Shown: piece by piece, positions 17,089-26,749 of the stretch
How the letters are laid out: each line of letters opens with the position of its first letter
How positions within the stretch are numbered: position 1 is the first letter of the stretch
DNA from: Clostridia bacterium
Lineage (GTDB): Bacteria > Bacillota > Clostridia > UBA1212 > UBA1255
Assembly (NCBI GenBank): GCA_045546695.1
Contig: JAZQDE010000015.1
Coordinates: 1,549 to 65,548, forward strand
Direction of reading: 5' to 3'
Length of the DNA: 64,000 bases
Notes under the pieces: generated by a model
What the model saw: only the letters and a program-made list of their open reading frames with translations
What the model was told of the DNA's origin: nothing
The model's database searches: none
Position numbers and translations under genes: made by a program

Positions 17089-17523
17089 ATGTCAGACACA
17101 ACTCGTAAAAAATTACATGATTTCTACAATGTCGTTCAGATAGTATTTATCATCATAAGTGCCGTGTGCATTATAGCCGCGTGCCTGCATTTGTTTTTCA
17201 CAGGCGGCGAAAAACCGTATTCGAGGCAAACTGTCGCAGAGCATTTCAAGTATATCTGCATCCCCGTTTATATAACAATTGTTCTCATCGCAGGCGGGTT
17301 TATTCTTAACCTTATTTTTCCACAGGAAAAGAAAAAGGGTCTTGCCGGCAAGCCAACCAAATTCAAGGCTGTTGAAAAAAATGCCAAGGTGATAAACATC
17401 GTTAGAATCTGTGTTTTCACAGTTGCTGTAGCGTTTATCTTGTATGGATTTTTGTCCGGCGGCGCGCTTGCCGTATTGACTAAGGCAATTAATATTTGTA
17501 CTGAATGTATTGGATTGGGGTGA
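17089..17523 (+). CDS. Small integral membrane protein (3 predicted TM), hypothetical
   Basis: AGGGTGG RBS and hydrophobic helices. Its stop lies 6 nt before the next gene. A TATAAT at 17067-17072 is upstream. Confidence 0.45.
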   Translation: MSDTTRKKLHDFYNVVQIVFIIISAVCIIAACLHLFFTGGEKPYSRQTVAEHFKYICIPVYITIVLIAGGFILNLIFPQEKKKGLAGKPTKFKAVEKNAKVINIVRICVFTVAVAFILYGFLSGGALAVLTKAINICTECIGLG

Positions 17524-17528
17524 TTGCG

Positions 17529-19037
17529 ATGAAAAAGATTTTAGCATTTTTAAAGAAAATTTGTCCTTCCAAGCGTAAACTCGTACAGCTTTATTTTGCA
17601 CTGCTTTTCAACGCAAATATTAAAGGTTTTGTAAATGGCAGTATTTATAATAATTCCACAAAAACCTCTACAAAGAACTTCTGTATTCCCGGTCTTAACT
17701 GTTACTCCTGCCCCGGCGCTACGGGGGCATGTCCTCTGGGCTCCCTTCAGGACTCATACAACGCAGGCAGAAGTACTATTTTTTATGTTCTCGGTATTCT
17801 TCTTCTGTTTGGAGTGATGTTCGGCAGAATGATTTGCTCATGGATGTGCCCGTTCGGTTTTGTTCAGGAGCTTACGTATAAAGTGAAAACAAAAAAGGTT
17901 AAAAAGAGTCGTTTTACAAGGATTCTTTCATATACGAAGTATGTTTTCCTCGTTGTTTTCGTCGTTATTATTCCGATTTGTTATGCATTCAAGGACGTTG
18001 CTTTCCCTGCTTTTTGTAAGTTCATTTGTCCGGCAGGTACATTAGAAGGTGCGATGGGACTTCTTGCCAACAAAGTCAACGACAGTTATTTTTCAATGTT
18101 GGGTCCCCTGTTTACATGGAAATTCCTTTTAATGGTATCAATTATCGTTGGCTCGATATTTATTTACAGACTCTTTTGCCGTTTTATTTGTCCGCTTGGT
18201 GCGTTGTACGGTCTTTTCAACAGATTCTCAATTTTTGGTCTTAAGCTTGATGATGCCAAATGTACAAAGTGTAATTTGTGTGTAAATAAATGTAAGATGG
18301 ATGTTTATAGCGTCGGCGATCATGAATGTATTTTGTGCGGTGAATGTATCGACGTTTGTCCGACAAAAGCCATTTCCTGGAAAGGCCCGAAGATTTTCAT
18401 CAAAGCAAATGATATTCCTGAAAAAGATGATGTGCCGGCTGCTCCAGAGTGCAATAAAAAGCGTGAAAAGTTAAGACTTATTACAAGAATTGGTACACTC
18501 GTTATTATGCTTGCAGTTTTATTTGTTGCGATTGCTCACTACTGGATTGAAGCTGACAAAGCAGAAAAGGTTGTTTATGAAACCGGCAGCGAAGTCGGTA
18601 TGATCTGCCCCGGTTACGATCTTGAGATTGTCACAAAAGACGGCCCGACAGGCACTACAATCAATCCTCCGGAAACCGGAAAAATCACGATTATCAATTT
18701 CTGGTATACGATGTGCACTTCATGCGTTGCAGAGCTTCCATATTTTGAGAGAATTGCAAACGAGTATGAAAACGTAGATGTTATTGCTGTACATTCTGAG
18801 CTTACCTGGTCTTTTGAGGAAGCTGACTTTATAGCAAAGAATTATCCTGATTCCAAAATTATTTTCGTACATGACTATGCTGAAAATTCCGTATCGGATA
18901 TATATTATAAAACACTTGGCGGCAAGGGTGCTTATCCGCAGACTGTTATTCTTGATGAAAATGGTGTAATCGTCAGGATTATAGTTGGCTCAACAACTTA
19001 TGATGAATTAAAAGATATTGTCGATGGTATAAAATAA
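17529..19037 (+). CDS. NapH/CcoG-like polyferredoxin membrane protein (3 CxxxCP motifs, 2 [4Fe-4S] motifs) fused to a C-terminal TlpA-like thioredoxin domain
   Basis: CSWMCPFG, CKFICPAG and CRFICPLG within TM regions. CTKCNLCVNKC plus CILCGECIDVCP ferredoxin motifs. An extra TM. Then a thioredoxin fold with NFWYTMCTSC (CxxC) ... YPQTVILDENG. ATG at 17529 with a GGGGTG RBS. The ORF track starts at 17505. Confidence 0.7.
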   Translation: MKKILAFLKKICPSKRKLVQLYFALLFNANIKGFVNGSIYNNSTKTSTKNFCIPGLNCYSCPGATGACPLGSLQDSYNAGRSTIFYVLGILLLFGVMFGRMICSWMCPFGFVQELTYKVKTKKVKKSRFTRILSYTKYVFLVVFVVIIPICYAFKDVAFPAFCKFICPAGTLEGAMGLLANKVNDSYFSMLGPLFTWKFLLMVSIIVGSIFIYRLFCRFICPLGALYGLFNRFSIFGLKLDDAKCTKCNLCVNKCKMDVYSVGDHECILCGECIDVCPTKAISWKGPKIFIKANDIPEKDDVPAAPECNKKREKLRLITRIGTLVIMLAVLFVAIAHYWIEADKAEKVVYETGSEVGMICPGYDLEIVTKDGPTGTTINPPETGKITIINFWYTMCTSCVAELPYFERIANEYENVDVIAVHSELTWSFEEADFIAKNYPDSKIIFVHDYAENSVSDIYYKTLGGKGAYPQTVILDENGVIVRIIVGSTTYDELKDIVDGIK

Positions 19038-26682: not shown

Positions 26683-26720
26683 AAATTCCTCACCTTTAGA
26701 ATATTTCCCTCATCCGATGA

Positions 26721-26749
26721 ATCGTATCATATTATTGCTTTATCGTCAA
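26721..26749 (-). promoter_or_regulatory. Putative sigma-A promoter for the lipoprotein cluster
   Basis: Minus strand: TTGACG, 17-nt spacer, TACGAT, in the 73-nt gap after hemW. Confidence 0.35.

Follow-up and report, generated by a model that had tools for sequence, protein, structure and literature searches.

A candidate iron-sulfur-linked reductant route to surface thioredoxin lipoproteins in gut Clostridia

We analyzed a 64,000-nucleotide (nt) stretch of contig JAZQDE010000015.1 (assembly GCA_045546695.1, a Clostridia bacterium), and this full stretch is called the window below. The region that starts at position 17089 encodes a small membrane protein (A) and an iron-sulfur (Fe-S) membrane protein with a C-terminal thioredoxin (Trx) domain (B); beside them, on the other strand, lie four lipoprotein genes (C, D, E, and F). 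Extracytoplasmic Trx-like proteins have been described as fed via DsbD/CcdA-family proteins (PMC8238504). An initial annotation, made from the letters of the sequence, had noted that no such protein is encoded in the window and had put forward the Fe-S protein as the electron supplier. The first of these statements agrees with our scan, in which none of 28 window open reading frames (ORFs; with one exception, every one that reaches 150 amino acids (aa)) gave a Pfam match to DsbD/CcdA (PF02683).

Layout of the locus

The six genes and their principal domains are as follows (TM, transmembrane).

17089..17523, plus strand: A, 144 aa, three TM helices, CD1871A-family CXXC tail
17505..19037, plus strand: B, 510 aa, NapH-like Fe-S membrane part and ResA-like Trx domain
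17505..18539, plus strand: membrane part of B, residues 1-345, a NapH-like module of four TM helices and a fifth TM helix at 325-343
18615..19034, plus strand: Trx domain of B, residues 371-510, CTSC at 404-407, cis-proline P478, Pfam match at 391-498
19155..19598, minus strand: C, 147 aa lipoprotein
19604..22549, minus strand: D, 981 aa lipoprotein, Trx motif CDPC
21737-22108, minus strand: Trx domain of D, residues 148-271, with the CDPC
22553..23845, minus strand: E, 430 aa lipoprotein without a Trx domain
23863..26682, minus strand: F, 939 aa lipoprotein, Trx motif CSAC
25879-26247, minus strand: Trx domain of F, residues 146-268, with the CSAC

All six ORFs were recovered at these positions. 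The minus-strand genes F-E-D-C (19155-26682) converge on the plus-strand pair A-B (17089-19037), and because the gaps between them are only 17, 3, and 5 nt they look like one operon. Judging from the homologues and from a GGGGTGA motif 5 nt upstream, the true start of B is most likely the ATG at 17529, 5 nt past the stop codon of A. Scans for promoters and terminators did not rise above shuffled expectation (47 promoter-like sites vs 34 +/- 6, and 6 terminator-like sites vs 5.8). Rfam gave no match in the window, and no nap, nos, or cco genes are present in it.

The A-B pair and its thioredoxin domain

B had been described as a NapH/CcoG-like Fe-S protein ending in a TlpA-like domain with CTSC, and matches to Fer4_5, Fer4, and Redoxin bear this out. 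Fer4_5 (PF12801) was matched in two stretches with 65.2 bits against a cut-off of 22. All scores for the named families of this type were far below their cut-offs: 77.5 bits vs 213 for NapH/MauN (TIGR02163, a partial match), 58.8 vs 234 for NapH (PRK09477), 36.6 vs 1000 for NosR (NF046105), and 26.4 vs 317 for CcoG (TIGR02745). When aligned with NapH of Escherichia coli, B was found to match it in helix 1, including an R...Q motif, in the two CX3CP motifs (C111/C115 and C225/C229, predicted to lie on the inner side), and in the two 4Fe-4S motifs. B has in addition six invariant cysteines (Cys) beyond those of E. coli NapH, placed in insertions of two predicted outward loops. Four of them follow helix 1 (C60, C66, C69, and C76 in C-x-PG-x-NCYSCPGAxxACPLG) and two follow helix 3 (C171 and C175 in FCKxICPAG).

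NapH has its ends and its clusters inside the cell. The density of lysine plus arginine along the alignment rises and falls in turn: the N-terminus has 0.27, loops 1, 2, and 3 have 0.06, 0.18, and 0.05, loop 4 together with the ferredoxin part has 0.14, and the stretch past the fifth helix has 0.03. On the grounds of the homology to NapH, the hydrophobicity, and this alternating charge bias, the termini of the NapH part and the 4Fe-4S clusters are predicted to be cytoplasmic, and the six extra Cys and the Trx domain to be outside. Many homologues of B are longer (640-800 aa); in these the fifth helix is followed by two Trx domains in tandem, both of which have a WCxPC (P0003-P0025, P0058, and P0093; locus L004, 10001-11995); some of them have long N-terminal extensions.

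The plus-strand protein with three TM helices that precedes B was confirmed as such and can now be placed in the CD1871A family of CXXC motif-containing proteins (NCBIfam NF040920), with 43.8 bits against a cut-off of 32 over residues 108-144. This tail of A, ...LTKAINICTECIGLG (nt 17410-17520), includes CTEC, and a lysine-rich loop (residues 79-103) stands ahead of the last helix. The bodies of A homologues vary from 86 to about 300 aa and have one, three, or five helices, always an odd number, behind a positively charged N-terminus. Because of the lysine-rich loop in A and of the odd helix number and charged N-terminus in its homologues, the CTEC tail is predicted to face outward.

The pairing of A with B was seen in two sets of loci. 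Among 84 genome loci, about 60 have a gene with a CxxC tail that stops within a few bases of the start of B, and almost all of those upstream genes end in GG..DVLxKAxNICTECIGLG at the extreme C-terminus. In an independent metagenome sample, whose contigs were picked with a degenerate DNA pattern for the A tail and its stop codon only, a B-like gene came directly after the tail in 100 of the 101 loci with at least 400 nt downstream, and the fused Trx domain was present in 57 of the 61 with at least 1700 nt downstream. Elsewhere NF040920 was matched by mini-A forms (55.9 and 44.5 bits) and by a long form (33.9 bits); a homology search with A as the query returned just 28 proteins. On this genomic evidence A is a constant partner of B and no bystander.

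Of the four exceptions to the fused Trx domain three are informative, and the metagenome contigs L186 and L194 show why. Their Fe-S protein (283-285 aa) ends directly after the ferredoxin motifs with all Cys motifs retained, it is preceded by a single-helix protein of 56-64 aa with a KICTECIGLG tail (the best CD1871A scores, 44-56 bits), and directly upstream is a separate Redoxin protein that has a signal peptide or lipobox and a CPPC or CGPC motif. A split set of this kind is also present in a cultured organism, Peptoclostridium acidaminophilum DSM 3953, on the 809 kb plasmid replicon NZ_CP007453.1 (L206, 3751-6831). The annotation there lists a lipoprotein of the TlpA disulfide reductase family, a CD1871A-family protein of 45 aa, and a 4Fe-4S binding protein of 280 aa that is 44% identical to the membrane part of B; an MFS transporter gene stands between the TlpA gene and the CD1871A/Fe-S pair. 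Since the Trx is fused in most species and is a separate exported neighbour in others, there is strong genomic evidence that it is the working partner of the Fe-S module. The signal peptide or lipobox on the Trx proteins of the split forms also argues that the Trx domain of B lies outside. The proposal that the Fe-S protein is the electron supplier is strengthened by the split forms, and we infer this role rather than observe it.

By the family name, the split form is presumably also present in Clostridioides difficile. CD1863-CD1870 of C. difficile 630 lie in the transposon CTn5 (PMC3158075). CD1871A, the strain 630 protein after which the family is named, is numbered directly after the CTn5 conjugation region, and the split system may ride a mobile element there. 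The "CD1871" of PMC11326576 is an unrelated ABC permease that follows the numbering of another strain.

The Trx domains of B, D, and F were all above the Pfam cut-offs (26.6 bits for Redoxin, PF08534, and 26 bits for AhpC-TSA, PF00578), with 38.5 bits for Redoxin and 29.0 for AhpC-TSA in B, 38.2 and 52.8 in D, and 49.8 and 56.0 in F. The closest solved structures were ResA (4nmu, 1st9), followed by the pneumococcal lipoproteins Etrx1 and Etrx2 (2yp6, 4hqz); the sequence matches of the B domain in the PDB were 2l5o and 4nmu (ResA). The AlphaFold model of B is confident in the Trx part, with a predicted local distance difference test score (pLDDT) of 80-93. The CxxC is kept in 30 of 30 homologues of the F/D-like lipoproteins from related loci and in all of the more than 70 B homologues compared, where C404, C407, and P478 are invariant. 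When the 30 lipoprotein domains were aligned with B and, as a guide only, with ResA, conservation of the cis-proline column reached 90% or more and the Glu-Phe-Pro that follows the motif was largely kept. By these measures the three domains are genuine TlpA/ResA-like folds kept under selection, and the non-canonical CSAC of F and CDPC of D sit within such folds as the initial annotation had it.

The Trx domains did not reach the cut-offs of ResA (PRK03147, 50-77 bits vs 170), StoA (NF041202, 35-40 vs 210), TlpA (NF047696, 21-30 vs 230), or DsbE/CcmG (TIGR00385, 23-27 vs 123). They are, as judged by profile scores, relatives and not orthologues of ResA, StoA, TlpA, and DsbE. Simple cytochrome maturation had been doubted from the start. 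A role in cytochrome c maturation or in sporulation (StoA) was rejected, the scores being far under the cut-offs and the partner genes absent, and so was a peroxiredoxin function, the motif being the Trx-type W/F-x-x-C-x-x-C and not a peroxiredoxin active site.

Thioredoxin lipoproteins and their linkage to A-B

The ORFs and lipoboxes confirm the claim of four consecutive minus-strand lipoproteins of 939, 430, 981, and 147 aa. Each N-terminus consists of a segment with charged and hydrophobic residues that closes on a lipobox Cys (by pattern match only: FAAC29 in C, MVSC28 in D, LCSC27 in E, and FVGC24 in F) and is followed by a linker rich in Pro, Thr, and Ala. The title of the initial annotation had spoken of three giant Trx lipoproteins; D and F do carry a Trx domain, and E has none. 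CarbopepD_reg-like domains had been ascribed to the group, and here the CarboxypepD_reg match is above the cut-off in D, which F resembles with 36% identity over the first 300 residues, and below it in C. C, with one immunoglobulin (Ig)/transthyretin-like domain after the linker (it also matches Ig_DR_A0283, Big_1, and SpaA), resembles the N-termini of D and E, and its homologues were found in 28 of the 84 loci.

D is built, in order, of an Ig domain, the ResA-like Trx domain, beta-sandwiches, Ig repeats, a PPC-like sandwich, and a C-terminal module (nt ~19607-20044). F has an Ig domain, the ResA-like Trx domain, a beta-rich region, and then a first and a divergent second copy of the module. 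In E, a transthyretin-like Ig domain at 47-103 is followed by a PPC/collagen-binding-like sandwich at 125-254 and by the C-terminal alpha/beta module at 285-430 (nt 22556-22993). The structure model of E is confident (pLDDT 89), and the module gave no match among the solved PDB structures listed. A C-terminal module of about 150 aa had been assigned to all three large lipoproteins. This holds for D and E, which are alike over the whole C-terminal ~380 aa (35% identity between D 621-981 and E 49-430); F has an internal copy at residues 484-588 (nt 24919-25233, hhalign probability 96%) and at its C-terminus only a weak, expanded one at about 758-933 (nt 23884-24411, hhalign probability 36% at 873-933). 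Each copy keeps two Cys (C361/C426 in E, C917/C978 in D, C556/C586 and C897/C931 in F), those of F being positioned differently from those of D and E.

The family of the E/D C-terminal module comprises 672 representative clusters, and the module is always C-terminal. Since Redoxin was found in 29 of the 40 long members scanned and another kind of catalytic domain in none of the 40, the module is, by domain content, specific to this class of Trx lipoproteins. In the lipoproteins of the window the Trx domain is one Ig domain away from the lipid anchor. It could meet the tethered Trx domain of B near the membrane, with the remainder of the protein extending outward.

The direction of flow was judged from the motifs. 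Reducing-type WCTPC or WCGPC is found in most homologues, and the MCTSC, GCSAC, and QCDPC of the window are local variants; because most B homologues carry WCTPC or WCGPC, we read the pathway as delivering reductant. In the opposite direction, the Trx lipoproteins would be DsbA/DsbC-like oxidases or isomerases, and A-B would take the part of DsbB/VKOR and drain the electrons of thiols. The non-canonical CxxC dipeptides in the window would fit such a scheme, as would the unusually Cys-rich exported proteins of the locus, the conserved Cys pair in each C-terminal module (C361/C426 of E, for example), and the fact that NapH itself draws electrons from quinol (PMC5928378). However, the domains fall in the TlpA/ResA reductant family and not with DsbA, the classical reducing motif prevails in the homologues, and the ResA-type Glu-Phe-Pro after the motif is retained. 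Going by established redox potentials, low-potential 4Fe-4S clusters of the ferredoxin type are, moreover, poor acceptors for disulfide formation. We regard the oxidative direction as very improbable and keep to the reductive one.

At least 598 genome stretches of gut Clostridia, out of 600 that were matched, encode relatives of B. The 80 loci kept all come from uncultured gut or rumen samples and are nearly all named Clostridia (Faecousia, other Oscillospiraceae, Christensenellaceae, and others), with single bins named Alloprevotella and Fretibacterium. A protein search with B gave 6454 matches at E <=1e-10, the best 120 of which all had Fer4_5 and Redoxin. Linkage was counted in 35 fully flanked loci, those in which A-B has 9 kb or more on either side. 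An F-like Trx lipoprotein was found within 10 kb of B in 23 of them (66%), and near B in 11 of 15 loci in which B is only 40-48% identical, where the architecture of Ig, Trx, and long region is the same. F is the most widely conserved neighbour of A-B, and the expectation that the lipoproteins and the Fe-S-Trx gene co-occur in related genomes was borne out. As the counts stand, the 66% co-location of a rare lipoprotein family with A-B is not compatible with chance, and chance adjacency was rejected on the conservation across distant lineages and after rearrangements. Recurring LysR, ECF sigma/anti-sigma, WG-repeat lipoprotein, and histidine kinase genes in the metagenome loci look like the synteny of one abundant lineage and were not used, and several recurring "ORFs" in those loci are antisense artefacts.

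The linkage counts also bear on whether A-B serves its own fused Trx domain only, the lipoprotein operon being functionally separate. Its tasks might then be to handle metals or cofactors (as TlpA/ScoI), to mature cytochromes or the spore cortex (as ResA/StoA), or to feed some reductase. We hold both the separation and these tasks to be improbable. A nearby F-like lipoprotein is missing from 12 of the 35 loci, the Trx domains have weak NCBIfam similarity to ResA, StoA, and TlpA, and spoIIP, as judged from sequence, lies about 3 kb away. Yet the ResA and StoA scores given above are far short of their cut-offs, genes for ResB/ResC, cytochrome c, or Sco do not recur near A-B, the co-location holds across B lineages of 40-48% identity and across rearrangements beyond what chance would give, and the family of the lipoprotein module is in its own right associated with Redoxin domains. 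In the six scanned loci that lack both the F-like lipoprotein and the protease described next, the neighbours are unrelated; A-B is therefore a self-standing unit, and the genes of its clients may lie in other places.

On the other side of A-B the window contains the following genes.

9736..16965, minus strand: G, 2409 aa cell-envelope S8 protease, divergent from A-B
8417-9739, minus strand: 440 aa lipoprotein, no family match
5789-8365, minus strand: SBP_bac_5 lipoprotein, 858 aa, unusually large
1586-5766, minus strand: OppB, OppC, OppD, and OppF, the Opp transporter genes

G matched Peptidase_S8 (144 bits), a PA insert (59.8), fn3_5 (52.9), and LRR_5 in Pfam, and scored below the cut-off for the SGO_0316 LPXTG subfamily (260 vs 1400). 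The catalytic motifs DTG, HGTH, and GTSMA are present; G also contains 28 Cys and seven BspA-type LRR_5 stretches and has a TM anchor at its C-terminus. Its listed GTG start (16965) is probably wrong, the signal peptide beginning at an ATG near 16914. By its gene content, 1586-16965 is a complete surface proteolysis and peptide-uptake locus. An S8 protease adjoins A-B in 18 of the 35 fully flanked loci and in 8 of the 10 with B at least 55% identical. The synteny of S8 protease, lipoprotein, and Opp genes with A-B recurs in L001, L002, L004, and others, and rearrangement, for example in L033, L038, L041, and L081, has not broken the link of A-B to the S8 protease, the lipoprotein of 440 aa, and the large binding protein of Opp. 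In some distant loci that lack S8, a stand-alone BspA-type LRR_5 protein adjoins A-B (L047, 11519-12562, by Pfam; L048, ~11538, and L069, ~11378, by tblastn only).

Three observations in the window concern other genes. At 36947-43623 (minus strand), in its lowest-GC part (~0.356), are adjacent ORFs of 1607 and 612 aa that gave no Pfam or NCBIfam match. They have a near-identical N-terminus, ...AYAWLTMSxAPEVTGINTNIGSNGxLEIALLN, after a hydrophobic segment, by which they are paralogous secreted or anchored proteins. The minus-strand regions 30708-34976 and 49141-50608 hold between them a 1422 aa protein of the CoA-enzyme activase type, in which two BcrAD_BadFG ATPase domains are fused to DUF2229, and a DUF5685 protein (292 aa) that overlaps a DnaJ-TPR protein (201 aa); both are unrelated to A-F.

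Proposed electron flow, its target, and known systems

We consider it on balance probable that A-B carries reducing equivalents from cytoplasmic 4Fe-4S clusters to Trx folds outside the membrane, which reduce F and D. In such a pathway, reduced ferredoxin or another cytoplasmic donor would load the two 4Fe-4S clusters of B, and the electrons would pass to the inner CX3CP cysteines. They would then cross to the six Cys of the outward loops of B and to the CTEC tail of A, either by a dithiol/disulfide relay or via an additional cluster with chemistry like that of ferredoxin:thioredoxin reductase. B's own Trx domain would become reduced in this way and would in turn reduce the membrane-proximal Trx domains of the lipoproteins F and D, whose Ig stalks, PPC-like sandwiches, and C-terminal modules may hold a macromolecular substrate whose disulfides get reduced. 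The role of CX3CP in NapH, NosR, and RdhC is held to be unknown, and disulfides have been proposed there, NosR having only about 8 Fe (PMC5928378).

Several points weigh against this pathway. The AlphaFold model of the membrane part of B is unreliable (pLDDT 40-60, with a mean of 62 for the whole protein), and the CxxC dipeptides of the window, CTSC, CSAC, and CDPC, are atypical. We know of no precedent in the family for Fe-S assembly on the outer face or for one-electron centres that reduce a transmembrane disulfide. Among the 12 fully flanked loci with no F-like lipoprotein nearby, six have no S8 protease either, and the neighbours that were scanned in six loci of this kind are unrelated. 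The link to S8 and Opp is limited to one clade, with S8 in 1 of the 15 loci of the distant group. Finally, the split set of L194 stands beside oxidative-stress genes (MarR, glutathione peroxidase, desulfoferrodoxin-like), and TSCPD is also found there.

What the lipoproteins would act upon is a separate matter. The flanking lactocepin-type S8 protease, the 440 aa lipoprotein, and Opp with its 858 aa binding protein suggest a role in proteolysis, in which the substrates here would be disulfide-bonded host or dietary proteins, opened for the S8 protease, with Opp taking up the products. We put this forward as the most tentative step of the proposal, rather unlikely when taken by itself. Papers on keratin degradation (for example PMC4756042 and PMC7775373), as far as their titles and abstracts go, reportedly pair disulfide reductases with subtilisin-type keratinases. 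Genetic linkage of an S8 protease of this kind to a surface thioredoxin system was not found in the literature searched. G shares with lactocepin-type proteinases the combination of S8, PA, and Fn3_5 beside an Opp transporter; unlike them, it is 2409 aa long, has LRR_5 repeats of the BspA type, and is held by a TM anchor.

The main rival as to the physiological target leaves the conduit as it is and gives it another purpose, that of keeping up or repairing surface thiols on exposure to oxygen or oxidants, in the manner of the pneumococcal CcdA-Etrx-MsrAB2 system. Its clients would be the organism's own exported proteins, such as the Cys-rich S8/LRR_5 protein and the Cys pairs of the lipoprotein modules, or extracellular low-molecular-weight thiols. 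Etrx1 and Etrx2, which act in oxidative-stress resistance (PMC3914529), are, after ResA, some of the nearer relatives of the Trx domains with a solved structure. The oxidative-stress genes near the split set of L194, the 28 Cys of G, and the Cys-bearing LRR_5 proteins that neighbour A-B even where S8 is lacking (L047 and, by tblastn, L048 and L069) point the same way. Papers on Faecalibacterium prausnitzii, a relative, reportedly concern an extracellular shuttle with riboflavin and thiols (PMC4010535). Against such a purpose, repair enzymes such as Msr or peroxiredoxin do not figure among the recurring neighbour families of A-B, the lipoproteins have about 650-700 residues of binding-type domains that would be superfluous in a simple repair relay, and most of the distant loci have A-B and the lipoproteins with neither S8 nor LRR_5 neighbours. 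We judge both this purpose and these clients to be unlikely, in about the same degree as the proteolytic role or slightly more so.

Among known systems, the conduit proposed for A-B can be compared with the NapH, NosR, and RdhC (PceC) modules (PF12801; Meheust et al. 2021, PMC8238504; Buttet et al. 2018, PMC5928378), with which B shares the four helices, the two CX3CP motifs, and a redox partner on the outer face; its pair of C-terminal 4Fe-4S motifs has a counterpart in NapH and NosR. The outer partner of B differs in being a Trx fold and not NapG or a flavinylated flavin mononucleotide (FMN) domain. B also differs from NapH by the six extra invariant Cys in its outward loops, by the fifth helix that carries the Trx domain outside, and by its constant small partner with a CxxC tail. 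Flavinylation-associated NapH-like systems are defined by an FMN_bind domain or ApbE (PMC8238504); neither was matched in A-F or the neighbours scanned, and neither recurs near A-B.

The CcdA-Etrx1/Etrx2-MsrAB2 system of Streptococcus pneumoniae (PMC3914529) and the CcdA-ResA/StoA system of Bacillus subtilis likewise have membrane-anchored or lipoprotein thioredoxins of the TlpA/ResA type outside the membrane, fed from the cytoplasm. Unlike in those systems, no CcdA/DsbD is among the families that recur near A-B (by recurrence, as the loci were not scanned with the DsbD profile), genes for Msr, cytochrome maturation, and cortex formation are absent, and the lipoproteins are of 900-1000 aa with large non-Trx regions. 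In its proposed working the system resembles an extracytoplasmic reducing pathway fed by CcdA/DsbD; because no DsbD-family protein was found among the 28 window ORFs scanned, it is not counted as one. DsbD/ScsB is similarly a transmembrane reductant conduit with a Trx-fold domain fused on the outer side, but its membrane domain is unrelated to that of B; DsbD uses Cys pairs only and takes its electrons from cytoplasmic thioredoxin, whereas B has Fe-S motifs and no DsbD domain. Ferredoxin:thioredoxin reductase and the heterodisulfide reductases HdrB/HdrD are precedents for disulfide reduction driven by 4Fe-4S clusters. They are like A-B in mechanism only, being soluble or peripheral enzymes that do not span the membrane, and the Pfam and NCBIfam scans gave no match to ferredoxin:thioredoxin reductase or CCG domains.

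The databases name the parts only, as CD1871A family, 4Fe-4S binding protein, and TlpA family. Our literature searches found nothing on CD1871A, on PF12801-thioredoxin fusions, on polyferredoxin-thioredoxin systems, or on the combination of A and B and its function. As a tentative but serious possibility, A and B together might represent a third class of conduit, one not recognised before, that brings reductant across the membrane to extracytoplasmic Trx-fold proteins, beside the cysteine relays of DsbD and CcdA. If this were true, cytoplasmic 4Fe-4S clusters would drive the reduction of Cys motifs on the two faces of the NapH-type module and of the CxxC tail of its small partner, disulfide reduction across the membrane would be powered by ferredoxin, and the CX3CP motifs of NapH, NosR, and RdhC would be given a function. 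In gut Oscillospirales, such a conduit would arm giant surface lipoproteins that reduce extracellular disulfides before proteolysis and peptide uptake. The split form in the cultured P. acidaminophilum makes the hypothesis open to experiment now. If the system works as proposed, strict anaerobes would have a ferredoxin-linked route for exporting reducing power, and the reduction of surface disulfides may help the abundant, uncultured Oscillospirales of the gut to forage on proteins of the host and the diet or to survive oxygen.

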